Source: Candidatus Thorarchaeota archaeon
GTDB lineage: Archaea; Asgardarchaeota; Thorarchaeia; Thorarchaeales; Thorarchaeaceae
Reading direction: 5' to 3'
Length of the DNA stretch: 26,317 bases
Assembly: GCA_046758445.1 (NCBI GenBank)
Contig: JBHIAE010000040.1
Span: 1-26,317, forward strand
The notes under the pieces: generated by a model
What the model saw: only the letters and a program-made list of their open reading frames with translations
Databases searched by the model: none
What the model was told of the DNA's origin: nothing
In this document: in pieces, positions 5,709 through 12,972 of the stretch
How the letters are laid out: every line of letters starts with the position of its first letter
How positions within the stretch are numbered: position 1 is the first letter of the stretch
Position numbers and translations under genes: made by a program

Positions 5709-8366
5709 CTATTTCACCTTCGCTTTGCCCAGGACCTTTTCGATTGCTATGTCTATATTCACTGACCTTCCGTGATCCGACTTACTCGGGTCGACACCAT
5801 CGTCTCCAAACTTGAACTGCACAATTCGACCTGGAGCCGTTCTGACTGTTCCATCGGTTTCTACCTTCAGGTCTTGCAGCGCAGTCATGAGCCTCCTCTG
5901 CATATACCCAGATGTGGAAGTACGAACTGCAGTGTCCACAAGGCCCTCACGGCCACCTGCCGCATGGAACCAGTACTCTATTGGGTCAAGACCGTCCTTG
6001 TAGCTGGACGTCACGAATCCTCTTGCTCTGGCACCTAGGTCGCCGCTCTCAAAGTGCGGGAGAGTGCGACCGATGTAACCTCGGCTGATACGCTCACCAC
6101 GTACTGCCTGCTGCCCTACGACTGCAGCCATCTGTGACAGGTTCAGTCTTGAGCCCCGTGCCCCAGTCTGAGCCATGATAACTGCAGCATTCTCGAGACC
6201 GAGGTGTTCACCGGCCACAGCGCCGGCGGAGTCTCGAGCCTCAGCTAGTGTGGCCATGATTCGCTGTTCGAGGGTTTCCAAGAGTGTCTGACCAGGGTTC
6301 GGGTCTAGTTCTCCACGCTTGTAGGTTTCAATCAGCTGGTTCACTTTGTGGTCTGCCTCTTCGAGGATGATCTTGATTCGTTGCTCAGCCTCTCTGGGCA
6401 GAGTCACATCGTCAAGACCCATTGTGAAACCTCTGTCAGTGATCAGACGAACAAGAAGTCGACCTACTGAATCCATGAATACACGGGCAGCCGTGGAGCC
6501 CTCTTCCTTGATTATTCGGTGGAACAACGAGTCTGGTTCGCCAGCACCAAAGGCCTTCTCGTCTACTACGCCGAACAAGAGTTCGCCATTTCGGATTACA
6601 ACATAGGAGTCGTATTGGCAGTCATCCTTCTCGCATACGTTGCACTTTCTGCAGACATTAGCCTTGAAGGACATATTGATGCCCTCTGGAATGAACATGC
6701 TGAATATCTGCTTTCCAGTCCATAGCTTCACCGGGCTAAGGATGGTCGGAGGTGGAAGCTCGCCAGTGAATTTACCTGTGGCCAACAGTTGGTTTACCTG
6801 GTTCTCAGTGTATAGACTTGACTTCCTGGTCAGCAAGAAAGCAGCAGAGATGTAGTCCTGAAGTGCGCCAATGATGGGCCCGCCATATCGTGGGGAGAGG
6901 ATCTGCTCCTGCACCCTCATTAGAACTCGGGCCTCTGCACGGGCCTCTTCGGACTGCGGCACATGAAGGTTCATCTCATCGCCATCAAAGTCTGCGTTGT
7001 ACGGCGGGCAGACATAGAGGCTCAGCCTGAAGGTACGGTATGGCATGACACGTACTTCGTGGGCCATTATCGACATTCTATGCAGTGATGGCTGACGGTT
7101 GAACAGTACAATATCACCGTTGTCTAGGTGTCGCTCCACAATGAAACCGGGCTCGATTGTGTCTGAAATGATGGACCGCTCTTTCACGAACCTCAGGTCT
7201 ACTCTGCGGCCGTCTGTACGAATGAGATAGTTTGCACCAGGGTGTCTGTCAGGACCACGAAAGACTAGCTCTTTCATCTCCTCAATGTTCCATTCGGTTA
7301 CTCTCTGTGGAATGGTGAGAATCCTAGCGATCTGCTCCGGAACACCTACCTCGTTCATGCTGAGGTTCGGGTCTGGTGAGATGACTGTACGGGCTGAGAA
7401 GTCGACACGCTTCCCTGACAAGTTCGAGCGGAATCGACCTTCCTTTCCCTTCAGCCTCTGTGCTAGAGTCCTCAGGGCCCGACCGGATCTGTGACGGGCT
7501 GGCGGGATACCGCTGACACCGTTGTCAAAGTAGGTTGTACAGTGGTACTGTAGCAGTTCCCAGAGGTCTTCTACAATCAACTGAGGAGCTCCTGCATCTA
7601 GGTTCTCACGCAGTCGCTGGTTAATTCTGATTATGTCGATCGCCTTGTGGCTCAAGTCGTCCTCTGATCTCACACCAGATTCCAGTGTGATTGATGGACG
7701 AACTGTCACCGGAGGAACTGGTAGCACCGTTAGAATTGCCCACTCCAATCTGGCAGCCTCAGCATTGATGCCGAGTAAGGCGTAGTCCTCGTCGGAGATG
7801 TTTTCCAGACGGGACCTGATGTCGATTGGAGTCAGACGAACTGAACCGGCCTCTCCAACCTCATAGATGGAAGTAGGTTTCTCGAGCTTGAGTTTGAGTT
7901 GTTCCTCACCACAGTGTGGACATGACTTTGCCTTTGCAGCGCGTTTTAGAATGTCCTTTGATAGATTAGCAGTCTTCTGACCAATCTCAGGATATCTCTT
8001 GAATAGACGGTTGTAATGGTCAATCTCCTCTTCGTTTAGCAGGATTCTGTTGCACTCTCTGCAGACACTTCGAAGGACCTTGTGAATGACCTTAGCGTAT
8101 CCCTCGTGCATGATAGGTCTTGCAAGCTCAATGTGACCAAAGTGTCCTGGACAATTCCCGACTCTGTTCCCGCAGGTTCTGCATCTCTGACCAGGATCAA
8201 TGACACCCAACCGTGGGTCCATGATTCCTGACTCGATTGGATAGCCATCTTCGTCATATGTGTCTGCAACGACTATTTGTGCTACAGACATCTTCCTGAT
8301 GTCATCTGGGCTGAGAAGACCAAACTCGATTGCATCGATCTTCTTGGTTGTCAGTCCGGTAATCAT
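5709..8366 (-). CDS. rpoA1: DNA-directed RNA polymerase subunit A' (Rpo1N)
   Basis: YNADFDGDEMN catalytic motif, CRTC..CPGHFGHIEL zinc site, LSGKRVDFSARTVISPDP, bridge helix GGREGLVDTAVRTSTSGYMQRRL. Start revised to ATG 8366, which overlaps the rpoB stop (TAATG). Confidence 0.99.
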   Translation of the reverse strand: MITGLTTKKIDAIEFGLLSPDDIRKMSVAQIVVADTYDEDGYPIESGIMDPRLGVIDPGQRCRTCGNRVGNCPGHFGHIELARPIMHEGYAKVIHKVLRSVCRECNRILLNEEEIDHYNRLFKRYPEIGQKTANLSKDILKRAAKAKSCPHCGEEQLKLKLEKPTSIYEVGEAGSVRLTPIDIRSRLENISDEDYALLGINAEAARLEWAILTVLPVPPVTVRPSITLESGVRSEDDLSHKAIDIIRINQRLRENLDAGAPQLIVEDLWELLQYHCTTYFDNGVSGIPPARHRSGRALRTLAQRLKGKEGRFRSNLSGKRVDFSARTVISPDPNLSMNEVGVPEQIARILTIPQRVTEWNIEEMKELVFRGPDRHPGANYLIRTDGRRVDLRFVKERSIISDTIEPGFIVERHLDNGDIVLFNRQPSLHRMSIMAHEVRVMPYRTFRLSLYVCPPYNADFDGDEMNLHVPQSEEARAEARVLMRVQEQILSPRYGGPIIGALQDYISAAFLLTRKSSLYTENQVNQLLATGKFTGELPPPTILSPVKLWTGKQIFSMFIPEGINMSFKANVCRKCNVCEKDDCQYDSYVVIRNGELLFGVVDEKAFGAGEPDSLFHRIIKEEGSTAARVFMDSVGRLLVRLITDRGFTMGLDDVTLPREAEQRIKIILEEADHKVNQLIETYKRGELDPNPGQTLLETLEQRIMATLAEARDSAGAVAGEHLGLENAAVIMAQTGARGSRLNLSQMAAVVGQQAVRGERISRGYIGRTLPHFESGDLGARARGFVTSSYKDGLDPIEYWFHAAGGREGLVDTAVRTSTSGYMQRRLMTALQDLKVETDGTVRTAPGRIVQFKFGDDGVDPSKSDHGRSVNIDIAIEKVLGKAKVK

Positions 8367-11300
8367 TAGATCATCTCCTTTAAGCGAAGCCTGGCGGCCA
8401 GGCCGAGCGACATCATCTCTTGTATCAGCAACTTGAACGCGTATGATACCACGACGCTGCTGATCTTCGCGTTGGTGCCGCATATCGGGCAGTAGTACTG
8501 GTCCTTGTTTCGGTCGTAGACTCCAATGAGACCGCAGTCCTCGCAGACCAGCATGTTGCTCTTGTCAGACTCATCCAAGAGCCTACCCTTGAGCAGAATG
8601 GCTGCACCGTGACCAATGAGTACGTCCCGCTCCATCTCCCCAAACCTCAGGCCACCCTCACGAGCACGACCCTCGGTGGGCTGGCGGGTGAGAATTTGTA
8701 CTGGTCCTCTGGCTCGAGCGTGAATCTTGTCCGCAACCATGTGATGGAGTTTTTGCATTGCTACGATACCTATAAAAACATTTGATATTAGCTTCTCTCC
8801 TGTTATTCCGGAGTACATGACTTCTCTTCCATTATGCTGGAAGCCGTGCTTCGTAAGTGTTTCAAATAGCTCTTCCTCCTTGACGCCACAGAACGGAGTG
8901 CCATCCTGTTGTTTACCCTCCACGCATGCCGCCTTTCCAGCAATCATCTCAAGGATCTGACCAATAGTCATCCGGCTGGGAATAGCATGTGGATTGATGA
9001 TTAGATCTGGAACAACCCCGCTCTCAGTGAAGGGTACATCCTCCTGTGGGACGATGTAGCCGATAACTCCTTTCTGACCATGTCGTGATGCGTACTTGTC
9101 GCCAAGCTCCGGTATACGGAGGTCGCGGACCTTCACCTTGACCAAACGGTTGCCATCGATGGTTTCGGTCAGGATGACGCTGTCAACTACTCCTGACTCA
9201 CCGTGACGTACTGCTACTGATGTTTCACGACGGTTGGGCGAGGCTATCTCGAACTCGGAGTACTCCTCCAGGAACCTCGGCGGGGAAGTCCTGCCGATGA
9301 GAACATCGCCACCCTGAACCTCTACCTCGGTCTCGATGACGCCGTCCTCTCCGAGATTGCGATAGGACTCGGATGCTCTGTAGCCCCTGACGCTTCGGTC
9401 AGGAATCTCGAATCGGTCCTCTTGTCCTCCAGGGTACTTGCGTTCCTCACTCTCGTAGACTCGTGCAAAGGTACTCCTTCCAAGACCTCTCTCAACTGAG
9501 GCCTTGTTCATGATGAGTGCATCCTCGATGTTGTAACCCTCGAATGAGAGGATTGCAACCACGAAATTCTGCAATGCTGGACGTTCCTCGTAGCCTATGG
9601 AGTCCATAGCCCTTGTCTTTACAAGTGGAATCTGAGGATAATGGAAGAAGTGAGACCGTGTGTCGGCACGGTACCTGAAGTTTGATGCTGGAACTCCCAC
9701 AGACTGCTTGGCCATACCAGCCATGTAGACATTACGAGGTGACTGATTTCTCTCTGGGAATGGAATGAGTGCTGCAGAGATACCAAGAATGGTGGAGGGA
9801 ACTATCTCCATGTGAGTCGTGTTAGGTCCGATCTCGTTCGGGTACATTGCGATGAGAGTGTTCTCCTCTTCCTCGGCGTCAAGGAACTCTACTATCCCGT
9901 TCCTCATCAGGTCTCCGTAACCCCACTCGACGTCCTCAACCATCCTCAGGTGTTCATCAGTCAGTCTACTCTTACCATTCTCGACCACAATTGCTGGGCG
10001 CCGAACTCTGCCGGCATCACAGTTGACTTGGACCTCATTGGTGTTCTCATAGTAAGCGATGTTGGTTTCTTGGTCGATCTCACCAGCACGCCGCTTCTGC
10101 CGCATGGTCTTGGCCAAGACCTGAGGTGCTGGATGGATTCCAACGAGTCGACCATTCAGGAAGACATCGGCCCACTTTGTACCTCGTCTTCCTTTGAGTT
10201 TCTCAATTGGCTCGACCTCGGCCTTGAGAAGGGCCTTCTCCACCGCAGTTTCGTCAGTGCCCACAGAGATGTAGGCCATCATAGCGATGTTCTTGACTAG
10301 ACCGCAGTTAGGACCTTCAGGGGTTTCGTTCGGACATATCTTGCCCCAGTGTGTAGAATGAAGGTCTCGCGCTTCGAAGTGTGGCTGTGACCGTGACAGA
10401 GGTGAAACCACTCTTCTCAGGTGGGAGAGAGATGAGATGTAGTTTGTACGATCGAGTAGTTGTGATACGCCGGCCTTGCCTCCAACCCAGTTACCCGTGG
10501 CAAGAGCGTGTTTGAGTCTCTGAGTGATGACATCAGCTCTGACAGCCGTGCGAATGTTGGGCTTACGACCACGCACTGCAGTGCGCTCTAGCTGATACTT
10601 TATGTCCCGAGTCAGGGAGTAGAGTGCAACTCTGAATAGGGACATGAGAAGGTCTCCAGACAGCTTCAGTCTCTTGTTTGCATAGTGGTCCTTGTCATCT
10701 GCCTGCCTCTTGATCAATACGAGCTCCAGCAGACGTTCCACCATCTGTCCCAGGTAGTATGCCTTCTGGAGTCGATGAACCTCTTCTGTTCCAATATGAG
10801 GAAGGAGATAGCGGTCGAGCACTTTCTCAGCGCGAGCAAGACGGTATTCCTTTGTCTGACCGACTGCTACTCGCTTACCAATGAAGTCTAGAGCATTGTC
10901 CCTTGTCGAGCTATCTTCATCTTCGCGACCAGCATTGATTGGCGCAGACTGTTCGATCGTGACGATCAGCTCATTCCTGATCTCATTGTCATCAGATATG
11001 ACGTCAACGATTTCCTTGTCGGACTCCAGACCAAGGGCCTTCAAGAGTATAGCAAGGGGTATTTTACCAGGCACAGAGGGGAAAGATACACGTAACTCAC
11101 CAGTTCTCTTTCTCTCAATGGTGACCGGGGCACGGAAGCCACGTGACGTTGAGAAGACCTTTGCTATGTGGGTGTAGCTTGAGCTCTTGCTTGCTTCTTC
11201 AATCAGAATCCTATTGGGCGCCAAATCTTCCTGTGTTACAAGAACGCGCTCTGACCCATTGATGATGAAGTAGCCACCGGGATCCTTCGGATCCTCGCCA

Positions 11301-11737
11301 TGCTTTATGAGTTCTTCATTTGACATGCCGTGGAGAAGACACTTCTCGCTTCGAAGCATAATGGGCATATCACCAATGTAGATCCTCATGGTTTCCATAC
11401 GAGTAGAGATGGACCCCTCCTTCCGTACCGGAGTCATGTCAAGGTATAGCTTGCTTGCATAGGTCAGGTTCCTGATCCGTGCCTCATTGGGGTACAGTGG
11501 ATGTTCGCTCCCATCGGCCTCTCTGACTGATGGAGCTTCAACTGCGATGTCCCCAAGCTCTACATGGTACCCCTCGACTTTCGGATTGAGCCTTGCTACA
11601 CTATCGACTACTTCCTGAATCTCCTCCCGAATGAAACGGTTGAATGAGTCCAGATGTTGGCCTACTAGCCCATAATAGTCGAAGAAGGCCTCAATGACAG
11701 GCCAGTACTTCCCCGTATCTTCAGTGTCTGTTGCCAT
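8366..11737 (-). CDS. rpoB: DNA-directed RNA polymerase subunit B (Rpo2, unsplit)
   Basis: GGYFIINGSERV, ETPEGPNCGLVKN, GDKYASRHGQKG, GGLRFGEMERD, C-terminal CxxC..CxxC; single 1123-aa ORF. Confidence 0.99.
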   Translation of the reverse strand: MATDTEDTGKYWPVIEAFFDYYGLVGQHLDSFNRFIREEIQEVVDSVARLNPKVEGYHVELGDIAVEAPSVREADGSEHPLYPNEARIRNLTYASKLYLDMTPVRKEGSISTRMETMRIYIGDMPIMLRSEKCLLHGMSNEELIKHGEDPKDPGGYFIINGSERVLVTQEDLAPNRILIEEASKSSSYTHIAKVFSTSRGFRAPVTIERKRTGELRVSFPSVPGKIPLAILLKALGLESDKEIVDVISDDNEIRNELIVTIEQSAPINAGREDEDSSTRDNALDFIGKRVAVGQTKEYRLARAEKVLDRYLLPHIGTEEVHRLQKAYYLGQMVERLLELVLIKRQADDKDHYANKRLKLSGDLLMSLFRVALYSLTRDIKYQLERTAVRGRKPNIRTAVRADVITQRLKHALATGNWVGGKAGVSQLLDRTNYISSLSHLRRVVSPLSRSQPHFEARDLHSTHWGKICPNETPEGPNCGLVKNIAMMAYISVGTDETAVEKALLKAEVEPIEKLKGRRGTKWADVFLNGRLVGIHPAPQVLAKTMRQKRRAGEIDQETNIAYYENTNEVQVNCDAGRVRRPAIVVENGKSRLTDEHLRMVEDVEWGYGDLMRNGIVEFLDAEEEENTLIAMYPNEIGPNTTHMEIVPSTILGISAALIPFPERNQSPRNVYMAGMAKQSVGVPASNFRYRADTRSHFFHYPQIPLVKTRAMDSIGYEERPALQNFVVAILSFEGYNIEDALIMNKASVERGLGRSTFARVYESEERKYPGGQEDRFEIPDRSVRGYRASESYRNLGEDGVIETEVEVQGGDVLIGRTSPPRFLEEYSEFEIASPNRRETSVAVRHGESGVVDSVILTETIDGNRLVKVKVRDLRIPELGDKYASRHGQKGVIGYIVPQEDVPFTESGVVPDLIINPHAIPSRMTIGQILEMIAGKAACVEGKQQDGTPFCGVKEEELFETLTKHGFQHNGREVMYSGITGEKLISNVFIGIVAMQKLHHMVADKIHARARGPVQILTRQPTEGRAREGGLRFGEMERDVLIGHGAAILLKGRLLDESDKSNMLVCEDCGLIGVYDRNKDQYYCPICGTNAKISSVVVSYAFKLLIQEMMSLGLAARLRLKEMI

Positions 11738-11763
11738 ATCACAACACCATGACTATGTGGGAC

Positions 11764-11879
11764 GGGGGAACCACTGCTAGCATACGCTTCCCTAAGCATG
11801 AACCCAGAAGTCCGAGCTCACCCATTTGCCGCAATAGCCGCCCCGTGTGTTTTTGCTCAAGTTCTGACTGCGTTCCCCC
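11764..11879 (-). ncRNA. Candidate structured RNA (three-way junction) between tRNA-Lys and rpoB
   Basis: Closing helix GGGGGAAC/GTTCCCCC; long arm CAGAA-TTGAGC...GCTCGG-TTCTG; short arm ATGCTT-AGGG-AAGCGT. G-U pairs form only on the minus strand. Folded by eye. Confidence 0.55.
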
Positions 11880-11894
11880 ACTCAGCATGAGATG

Positions 11895-12003
11895 TGGCGG
11901 GCTCGGCGGGATTTGAACCCGCGGCCCTTCCCCGATACAAGAAGAAATCATCTTGTTCTTCAGGTTAAAAGCCTGCTGCGCTACCTAGCTGCGCCACGAG
12001 CCC
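11895..12003 (-). tRNA. tRNA-Lys (UUU) with a ~32-nt non-canonical intron near 43/44; CCA encoded
   Basis: Acceptor GGGCTCG/CGAGCCC, D stem GCGC/GCGC, anticodon arm GCAGG-CTTTTAA-CCTG, T arm GCGGG-TTCAAAT-CCCGC. Extra sequence at about 11928-11959 contains an ACAAGA/TCTTGT hairpin. Confidence 0.93.
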
Positions 12004-12810
12004 TCTACATGTACAGACCAAGCACAACGCATGATGTATTGTAGTGTCGAACTATGTGGAGAGTTGTAAAGCGCGCAATGCGTGGCCATGCATGAGTGGG
12101 AAGCTATCTGCCTGAGCTGTCCGGACGGGATTGTGTAACCATAAAAGGGTTTCCATAAAACGAAAGATGGAGTATCATCTACTTCGGTTTGGGTGAACCA
12201 GTCCATATAGTGCCGTCATTGGTAAAAAGCATTGTGCTGGAACTGTCCAAGTGTAGAGAATCGCTGTCTGATTCAGGGACGTTGGCTGAACCATTTGCGT
12301 AGCTCGGCCTAGCCTGACCTGTTTCGCAGTATCGGTACAAGCACGATTCCACAAAACTCTCATGTTCCACTCATTCCTAGCCCGATGTTACCACCAAACT
12401 CTGGAGCCACCCTGAGTTTGGCTAAAACTTTGTATGAGATCATTGGGACTTTGTCCCTCCTTCAAACCTGGCTTCCTTCCCCTGTCTTGTTACTAGTGTA
12501 TCACTTCCAGAAACAGAAGGACTTCCCATGACTCTTGCCACGGCGGGGTCATTGTCACTCATCTCAGACTCGTCGCCAAGACTGAAAACGCTCATTTGAG
12601 CATGGCGAACAGCCGCGGACTCTCCAAGACTAGATACACAGTCTTTGGAGGAGAGTAAGGACTTCTCTCGAGATGATTGGTTCCTTTGGGCTTTCAGTTG
12701 CGTGTTTCGTCTTCCTTTATGACTACTAGCACACTTACCTAGTCCTATCACGACTATTCGTCAATGCTCGGCCCTTCTTAGCTCATACCGAGAGCATCCC
12801 AAGGACAAGG

Positions 12811-12864: not shown

Positions 12865-12972
12865 GCCCCTGTAGTGTAGCTCGGCCAATGCTGTAGATTT
12901 CCCACAGCATCCGAAATAGCATTCAAGACTGTCACTCTTGAGACCCGGGTTCAAATCCCGGCGGGGGCGCCA
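12865..12972 (+). tRNA. tRNA-Asp (GUC) with a 30-nt D-loop intron (20a/20b); CCA encoded
   Basis: Acceptor GCCCCTG/CGGGGGC, anticodon arm CAAGA-CTGTCAC-TCTTG, T arm CCGGG-TTCAAAT-CCCGG. Intron 12887-12916 has a TCGG/CCGA central helix and an ATGCTGT/ACAGCAT stem. Confidence 0.95.

Follow-up and report, generated by a model that had tools for sequence, protein, structure and literature searches.

A conserved structured RNA between tRNA-Lys and rpoB in Candidatus Thorarchaeota, a candidate leader of the RNA polymerase operon

What occupies the spacer between the transfer RNA (tRNA) gene for lysine and rpoB in Candidatus Thorarchaeota, and what might it do there? The locus lies on the minus strand of a stretch of 26,317 nucleotides (nt) (assembly GCA_046758445.1, contig JBHIAE010000040.1, positions 1 to 26,317; hereafter the window), where the order is tRNA-Lys(UUU), a 157-nt spacer, rpoB, rpoA′, rpoA″, rpl30e, nusA and rps12, the protein-coding genes being assigned by Pfam. 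A first-pass annotation, made from the letters alone, had placed an unrecognised three-way-junction RNA in this spacer (11764-11879), and its coordinates are borne out, the 116-nt stretch starting 15 nt past the encoded CCA of the tRNA and ending 26 nt before the rpoB ATG (11737). A conserved structured RNA does exist in the spacer, with borders and a fold unlike those first drawn. The location, the conservation, the lack of an earlier description and the three-way junction all hold, whereas the helices drawn differ from the conserved fold, and the true core starts 33 nt inside the drawn 5′ end and extends 2 nt past the drawn 3′ end.

The core comprises 85 nt (11846..11762, minus strand) and forms a three-way junction of a long closing stem (P1) and two hairpins (P2 and P3), with the following parts:

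11827..11846, minus strand: 5′ strand of P1, made up of P1a ACGGGG (11846..11841), a mismatched C (11840), P1b GGCUAUUGC (11839..11831) and P1c GGCA (11830..11827)
11820..11826, minus strand: junction J1/2, AAUGGGU, moderately variable, with a recurrent AUG-like triplet
11800..11819, minus strand: hairpin P2, GAGCUCGG-ACUU-CUGGGUUC, rich in G.U pairs, its loop always containing a UUCU-like pyrimidine run
11784..11799, minus strand: hairpin P3, AUGC(UU)-loop-(AA)GCGU, the GGGAA that ends its loop (11792..11788) being invariant in 53 of 54 sequences
11762..11783, minus strand: 3′ strand of P1, made up of junction J3/1 A (11783), P1c UGCU (11782..11779), a bulged A (11778), P1b GCAGUGGUU (11777..11769), a mismatched C (11768) and P1a CCCCGU (11767..11762)

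P1 is a stem of 15-19 base pairs (bp) with a near-invariant sequence, composed of the 6-bp P1a, a conserved C.C mismatch, the 9-bp P1b, which includes three conserved G.U pairs, and P1c, which has 3-4 bp and a 1-nt bulge of variable identity; tandem G.U pairs lie next to the mismatch. The core has a minimum free energy (MFE) of -40.4 kcal/mol (z -3.53), a value reached by none of 200 shuffles, and its centroid structure is the same as the MFE structure. The opposite strand reaches -16.7 kcal/mol (z +0.63); folding is asymmetric between the strands because many pairs are G.U, and the structure is present only on the rpoB sense strand. A stability beyond that of shuffled sequence, which the first-pass annotation had named as a check, is a property of the corrected core (z -3.53), the 116-nt stretch as drawn being marginal in this respect (-41.8 kcal/mol, z -1.92, with 8 of 200 shuffles doing equally well). 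The same three-way junction is the individual MFE fold of nearly all 48 distinct homologous cores, P2 is the MFE hairpin in nearly all homologues, and the P1 stem was predicted independently by RNAalifold.

Homologues were gathered through the tRNA-Lys/spacer/rpoB synteny, which BLAST recovered in 20 relatives (giving a 21-sequence comparison), and through a covariance model built on the revised structure, which aligned 54 homologues (48 distinct cores). Across the 54 sequences, 92.9% of cells are paired, and in slid controls this value falls to 37-58%. Some of the covariation that the first-pass annotation had named as a check is found in the revised fold, with both-side changes at seven pairs, where column shuffles give 1.4 and none of 500 attains the observed count; this control ignores the relatedness of sequences which are not independent samples. 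In P1 (ACGGGG-C-GGCUAUUGC / GCAGUGGUU-C-CCCCGU), 99% of cells are paired in the 21-relative alignment and 94-99% over the 54 sequences, with double changes from A-U to G-C, G-C to A-U, U-A to C-G and C-G to U-A. P1c differs by genus and remains complementary in its variants (GGCA/UGCU, GCA/UGC, GGAA/UUCC, GUCU/AGAC and GGC/GCC); a swap test on it is weak, own strands giving 3.65 contiguous pairs on average and swapped strands 3.10. The pairing of P2 in the 54-sequence count is an underestimate, as the model misplaces an extra junction C in one genus; once the hairpin is aligned by its 5′ strand, which has no gaps, each of the central 5 bp forms in 94-100% of 32 distinct hairpins; one position takes G.U, A-U, G-C and C-G, and a second one U.G, U-A and C-G. 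In P3, the G-C and C-G core pairs are present in 51-53 of 53 sequences, U.G becomes U-A in 14, and the GGGAAG columns are invariant. It is here that the only surviving helix of the first drawing is found, its short arm ATGCTT/AAGCGT being retained as AUGC/GCGU.

The alignment reveals a sharply bounded conserved block within a variable spacer. Pairwise identity is 82% in the core, 47% in the tRNA trailer (11847-11894, 21 relatives), 69% in the linker to the ATG, and 52% and 83% at the third and first codon positions of rpoB, respectively, and on this comparison the core is demonstrably under strong purifying selection. Conservation sits in the helices, namely P1 and the 5′ strand of P2, and the junction strands vary. 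The case for an RNA rests on the sum of five lines of evidence: strand asymmetry, folding energy, per-sequence folds, compensatory changes, and conservation far above that of synonymous sites.

The element is present in a single copy in the genome of the window (110.8 bits). In a class-wide sample, 72 of the 85 genomes of the family are positive, normally with a single copy, and the only genome of the sister family in that sample has none. A phylum-wide sample gave matches in 23 of 26 genomes of the family and in 0 of 125 genomes from 26 other families, which, under the strict filters used, means that the element was not found in the genomes searched. All these are metagenome-assembled genomes, and absence from an incomplete one is not evidence of absence. 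Matches to a DNA pattern come almost entirely from Candidatus Thorarchaeota, in keeping with the Asgard source that the first-pass annotation had guessed; three bacterial pattern matches were set aside as chance, with no model match at E<=1. Every one of the 54 loci examined has the element flanked by tRNA-Lys and rpoB, it was never seen away from rpoB, and in each of these loci a GGUG(U)-type Shine-Dalgarno (SD) sequence follows the 3′ end of P1 after 9-16 nt (median 13).

The gene order of other Asgard archaea suggests how this slot became available. Two families have rpoH ahead of rpoB and a third has tRNA-rpoH-rpoB, whereas rpoH lies on another contig (C31) in the present genome; from this we conclude that the element fills the vacated rpoH slot and probably arose when rpoH left the operon. 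The element as a remnant of rpoH was considered and rejected, with no Rpb5_C match in the window in a search of this genome and no nucleotide similarity to its rpoH copies. In the sister family, which belongs to the same taxonomic order, genome G025 (locus L096) also has tRNA-Lys ahead of rpoB, with an AT-rich spacer of about 250 nt that lacks the element and bears a TATA-like TTTTTACTTAA some 30 nt upstream of the SD. The linkage of tRNA-Lys to rpoB therefore probably predates the RNA. As a separate observation, contig C31 carries two tandem long RpoH/Rpb5 paralogues of 205 and 189 amino acids (L032:794-1411 and L032:1489-2058, both minus strand), each with a C-terminal Rpb5_C domain (89-90 bits) and a weak N-terminal match to the Mrr_cat restriction-endonuclease fold (E 7.6e-6 and 1.1e-4), an arrangement that may parallel full-length eukaryotic Rpb5.

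Does the element belong to a known class of RNA? With Rfam 15 (4227 models, riboswitches, ribosomal-protein leaders and small RNAs among them), only tRNA matches are found in the window at gathering thresholds, no hit at E<=10 overlaps 11762-11879, and eight divergent homologous loci yield nothing except tRNA at E<=1, in agreement with the first-pass annotation, which had recognised no known family and no tRNA or C/D features. RF00005 matches the neighbouring tRNA-Lys only, the element has three helices, and its sole resemblance to a tRNA is the heptamer GGGUUCA shared with the T arm. For box C/D RNAs, RUGAUGA occurs in 2 of 54 sequences and CUGA in 19 of 54 at positions that are not conserved; for H/ACA RNAs, CCNACA follows P1 in only 11 of 54, and the interior of P1 is a three-way junction rather than a pocket with an upper stem. 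The 54-sequence alignment has no 3-nt bulge with tandem sheared G.A pairs at a conserved position, as a kink-turn (K-turn) would, and the C-box/UGAKGA is seen in 2 of 54. No bulge-helix-bulge (BHB) motif is apparent, P1 having no 3-nt bulges and the trailer no conserved pairing with the linker, and a trailer helix with the linker or the SD (a P0 stem, an SD sequestrator or a BHB) was rejected, its duplex energies equalling those of shuffles (mean z 0.04). Mimicry of ribosomal RNA (rRNA) by sequence was likewise rejected, a blastn-short search with the spacer as query, run on the complete genome with its 16S and 23S contigs, returning only chance 12-14-mers. Neither full-text literature searches nor the paper on Asgard ribosomal-protein clusters (PMC10833476) yielded a mention of such an RNA. 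We regard the element as a new RNA family, though one whose general kind is already known.

As to function, we give a probability of roughly 0.55 to the reading in which the element is a cis-acting 5′ untranslated leader of the rpoB-rpoA′-rpoA″-rpl30e-nusA-rps12 messenger RNA (mRNA), transcribed by read-through from the tRNA gene and acting as a protein-binding operator, a 5′-end stabiliser or both. Both functional options of the first-pass annotation, an RNA freed by tRNA 3′ processing and a cis-regulatory or stabilising leader, still lead the field. A leader is favoured over a released RNA because the base of the stem stays at its short distance from the rpoB SD in all 54 loci, and the fact that rpoB has an SD implies that its mRNA has a leader. 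The features that surround the core are:

11895..12003, minus strand: tRNA-Lys(UUU) gene, with a non-canonical intron of about 35 nt 3′ of the anticodon arm and an encoded CCA; presumed first gene of the transcription unit
11859..11894, minus strand: variable tRNA trailer, holding the G-rich patch GGGGGAAC (the 5′ strand of the closing stem in the first drawing)
11847..11858, minus strand: semi-conserved 5′ flank, GAGY (GAGC, 11858..11855) and an A-rich linker (AAAAACAC, 11854..11847), with near-invariant G and A columns in the alignments
11738..11761, minus strand: linker CC(C/U)NCA..., 69% identical, the SD GGUG (11748..11745) and the spacer to the rpoB ATG (11737..11735)
8366..11737, minus strand: rpoB, unsplit, 1123 amino acids, the leading open reading frame (ORF) of the operon, with Pfam Rpb2 domains 1-7

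The tRNA-Lys gene is matched by RF00005 with 58.6 bits at 12003..11898 and is called Lys(ttt), ending at 11895, by ARAGORN with introns allowed; default ARAGORN makes zero tRNA calls in the window. Its 5′ exon is 97% identical across relatives. Among these relatives (L003-L022), the gene carries the intron of about 35 nt, one of about 42 nt inside the T-loop, both or neither, and CCA is encoded in all. The full trailer is 37-53 nt long in relatives, and its structure shows no excess over shuffles (mean z -0.21).

Transcription would begin at the tRNA-Lys gene and, no T-rich tract following it, continue across the element into rpoB. The missing tract sets this gene apart from most tRNA genes in the genome: a T-rich tract stands behind 24 of 36, and a TATA-like pentamer in front of 27 of 36. 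No T run of at least 5 and no positionally conserved TATA-like motif occurs between the tRNA and the SD in any relative, and an internal promoter was rejected, as the spacer contains no conserved TATA-like pentamer. Processing of the tRNA 3′ end would then free an mRNA that starts with a short A-rich segment and the stable three-way junction, in which P1, invariant in sequence and marked by a mismatch and wobble pairs, could serve as a protein docking site. The docking idea stems from the conservation of the helix sequence, the C.C mismatch and the G.U pairs, and not of pairing alone, together with the nearly invariant GGGAA loop and the variable junction strands; conserved helix sequence combined with a mismatch or wobble motif is typical of protein or metal recognition sites, such as bacterial ribosomal-protein operators. 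Candidate binders are products of the operon itself, such as RNA polymerase, eL30, NusA or uS12. A protein bound 13 nt from the SD might interfere with loading of the 30S subunit and thereby tune translation (autogenous control), and the stable 5′ fold might shield the processed mRNA end from 5′-to-3′ decay.

Several observations weigh against a leader of this kind. Covariation in P1a and P1b, though real, is thin, because the helix sequence is itself conserved; the tRNA-Lys gene has no clear promoter of its own, the sole candidate being CTTTAC at about -69; and the joint transcript with the tRNA, its 5′ end and its processing are presumed. Looking in the element for a K-turn or another known protein-binding motif, and for similarity to the rRNA contigs, gave nothing. 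The SD is not systematically sequestered, its mean unpaired probability of 0.42 in predicted ensembles being like that of the flanks, so that it is neither masked nor exposed, no switch made of RNA alone is visible, and control would require a factor. In one genus (G023, locus L018), an insert of about 85 nt separates the element from rpoB, and the spacing to the start codon is thus not absolute; in another (g27, genome G051), the spacer has strongly diverged, scoring 5.2 bits (E 1.7) with the model and having no like fold (z +0.94). Inspection of the G023 insert shows that an SD-like AAGGGUGG is retained right after the element, that a second GGUG precedes the ATG, and that a short ORF may lie within the insert. 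In the g27 spacer, a long stem UGUUACAG/CUGUAACA with a UUGGGAAC loop can be seen by eye; unscored by the model and without a like fold, it was not counted as evidence.

A more specific form of the leader, which we put forward tentatively and at odds well below even, is an operator of autogenous RNA polymerase feedback, in which RNA polymerase, or the co-encoded NusA or eL30, would bind P1 at its C.C mismatch and tandem G.U and throttle translation or stability, the device having been invented when rpoH left the operon. In a bolder variant, the excised RNA may also act in trans on RNA polymerase, like 6S RNA.

Such action in trans is central to the alternative that survives best, to which we allow a minor share of the probability. 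Here the element would be a stand-alone stable small RNA, excised by RNase Z cleavage right behind the tRNA and by a second cut in the CC(C/U)NCA linker, and would act in trans, for example by sequestering a protein, possibly on RNA polymerase in the manner of bacterial 6S RNA; its location before rpoB would merely secure co-expression. The compact and very stable fold, with near-invariant helices and loop, is what many protein-binding small RNAs display, and the place directly behind a tRNA gene resembles that in dicistronic units of a tRNA and a small RNA (sRNA). The insert in G023, which parts the element from rpoB and keeps the adjacency to the tRNA, would also suit a released RNA, as would an SD that the fold does not engage, yet the distance to that SD is held at 9-16 nt in 53 of 54 loci, and nothing like the T tract of a terminator separates the element from rpoB. 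Nor does the element occur away from rpoB, and its complementarity to other loci of the genome is limited to chance 12-14-mers.

A riboswitch-like sensor appears improbable, and clearly more so than a released RNA. It would consist of the three-way junction, possibly with a loop-loop contact between UUCU of L2 and GGGA of L3, and would bind a small molecule or ion and adjust the operon. In outline the element does resemble purine-type aptamers (P1 and two hairpins within 85 nt, in a 5′ leader by the SD), its loops are complementary, to the point that RNAalifold proposed UUUC/GGGA as nested pairs, and the GGGAA loop is near-invariant. However, its helices are conserved and its junction strands variable, which is the opposite of known aptamers, and no expression platform is evident, the SD being unsequestered, with no supported alternative helix and no terminator. 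No Rfam riboswitch model matches at E<=1-10, and the element is restricted to one family and one locus.

The fold originally drawn over the 116 nt is a most improbable candidate for the functional structure, whether taken as it stands (closing stem GGGGGAAC/GUUCCCCC; arm CAGAA/UUCUG-UUGAGC/GCUCGG-CAC/GUG) or, in a weaker form, as an alternative conformer that competes with P1a and P2. The complementarities are literally present (GGGGGAAC/GTTCCCCC, CAGAA/TTCTG, TTGAGC/GCTCGG, CAC/GTG and ATGCTT/AAGCGT) and are part of the MFE structure of the 116-nt stretch in this genome. The closing stem and long arm are specific to it and its close relatives, and the z of -1.92 for the stretch compares with -3.53 for the revised core. 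Across the 21 relatives, the 8-bp closing stem is paired in 60% of cells, its 3′ strand GTTCCCCC being invariant and its 5′ strand GGGGGAAC varying freely, and 9-12 of 20 sequences are broken at central positions without compensation; the invariant 3′ strand pairs instead with the equally invariant inner 5′ strand (ACGGGG-C-GGCUAUUGC). The long arm is paired in 69-75% of cells in these relatives and is broken within the same genus against an invariant partner, and the supposed apical hairpin GCGGC-TATT-GCGGC is a direct repeat that forms no hairpin. Its helix TTGAGC/GCTCGG is paired in 76.7% over the 54 sequences, a level not above shuffles (43 of 500 reach it for pairing and 109 of 500 for covariation), which leaves this helix without statistical support, also as an alternative conformer. 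A pairing of GAGY with RCUC, formed in 77% of cells, would speak for such a conformer; a pairing of GAGY with GCUC of P2, as a pseudoknot or switch, was rejected on the same grounds (76.7% paired, not above shuffles). Recurrent G-rich patches in the trailers could likewise pair with the run of C residues in the 3′ strand of P1, whereas trailer-to-downstream pairing as a whole has a mean z of 0.04. These patches are complementary to that C run or to its CCC tail at a level not above composition-matched shuffles, and such complementarity accounts for the apparent closing stem. A G-rich patch is present in nearly all trailers, which are otherwise variable: GUGGGGGAAC here (11866-11879), and GGUGGCGGAG, AUGGGUGUGGG or GGGUGGGGGUGG elsewhere.

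We likewise practically dismiss a DNA-level element (an rpoB promoter or operator, or a cruciform) and a small protein gene (ORF 11888..11739): an invariant inverted repeat could be a transcription-factor site, but at least seven conserved G.U pairs and helices valid on one strand only point to RNA rather than DNA, covariation preserves pairing and not sequence, and there is no conserved TATA-like motif; and 52 of 54 sequences have a frame without stops across the core, with a 49-codon ORF (ATG to TGA) that reaches the rpoB start in this genome, but the frame in which the invariant bases of P1 are read (0, 1 or 2) differs between species. The 49-codon ORF is judged fortuitous because neither the open frame, which differs between species, nor the length modulo 3 is conserved (the three classes of core length holding 21, 20 and 13 sequences).

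On the far side of the tRNA-Lys gene, the region 12060-12170 contains the only TATA-like motifs (CCTTTTAT and GCTTTAC) that could drive the tRNA-Lys/rpoB unit. Farther upstream, a 103-codon ORF (12440-12751, minus strand) is without a Pfam match and is perhaps not a genuine gene. Another tRNA gene with an intron lies at about 12865-12972 (plus strand), pointing away from tRNA-Lys; its anticodon loop CUGUCAC identifies it as tRNA-Asp(GUC) in the Rfam alignment, with an insertion in the D-arm region. A suppressor tRNA at this position was rejected, the label 'tRNA-Stop (tta)' from ARAGORN with the -i option being a miscall.

Very few cis-acting regulatory RNAs are, to our knowledge, known in Archaea, and we know of none described for the RNA polymerase operon. 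If the operator reading is true, the element would be, as far as we know, the first cis-regulatory RNA for archaeal RNA polymerase genes. In any case it offers a concrete handle on how the amount of transcription machinery is set in an Asgard archaeon, on how tRNA-mRNA co-transcripts are resolved (given the putative fusion to an intron-bearing tRNA gene), and on how a new leader evolves after operon rearrangement. If it is merely a stabilising 5′ hairpin, its interest would be modest. The 54 sequences with their structure provide a ready seed for a new RNA family.

How does the element compare with systems already described? Purine-riboswitch-type aptamers are alike in their size of about 70-90 nt, in P1 and two hairpins with complementary loops, and in their place in a 5′ leader; they differ in that the present element has a variable junction, invariant helices, a P1 of 15-19 bp, no expression platform and no Rfam match. 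K-turn operators of the L7Ae family (archaeal L7Ae in its own 5′ untranslated region, and yeast L30 on RPL30 pre-mRNA) come to mind because rpl30e (Pfam Ribosomal_L7Ae) belongs to the operon, which makes feedback by eL30 conceivable; unlike them, the element has no K-turn, the irregularities of P1 being a 1x1 C.C mismatch and a 1-nt bulge.

Two other comparisons come closer. Dicistronic tRNA-RNA units, with precedents in the tRNA-sRNA of Nanoarchaeum equitans, the tRNA-small nucleolar RNA (snoRNA) of plants, the 5S t-element of Haloferax and MALAT1-mascRNA, likewise have a structured RNA just 3′ of a tRNA with no terminator between them and an end of the RNase Z/RNase P type, whereas the present element continues into a large protein-coding operon, is not of the C/D, H/ACA or tRNA-like kind, and has a processing that is presumed. 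The bacterial L10 (rplJ) leader before rplJL-rpoBC, together with the rplL-rpoB attenuator and RNase III hairpin of Escherichia coli, shares with it a structured RNA directly before rpoB and near the ribosome-binding site, and the operon likewise mixes genes for RNA polymerase and translation; as there, conservation of helix sequence suggests recognition by a protein. The L10 leader differs in having no similarity to the element in sequence or model (the Rfam scan, which should include its model, found nothing), and the element is archaeal, is confined to one family and has a tRNA gene upstream in place of ribosomal-protein genes; no terminator or RNase III-type site was recognised in it. The likeness is one of analogy. 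With no homology to either, the bacterial rplJL-rpoBC leaders and attenuators and the tRNA-linked dicistronic RNAs are, by this analogy, the closest functional analogues of the thorarchaeal element.

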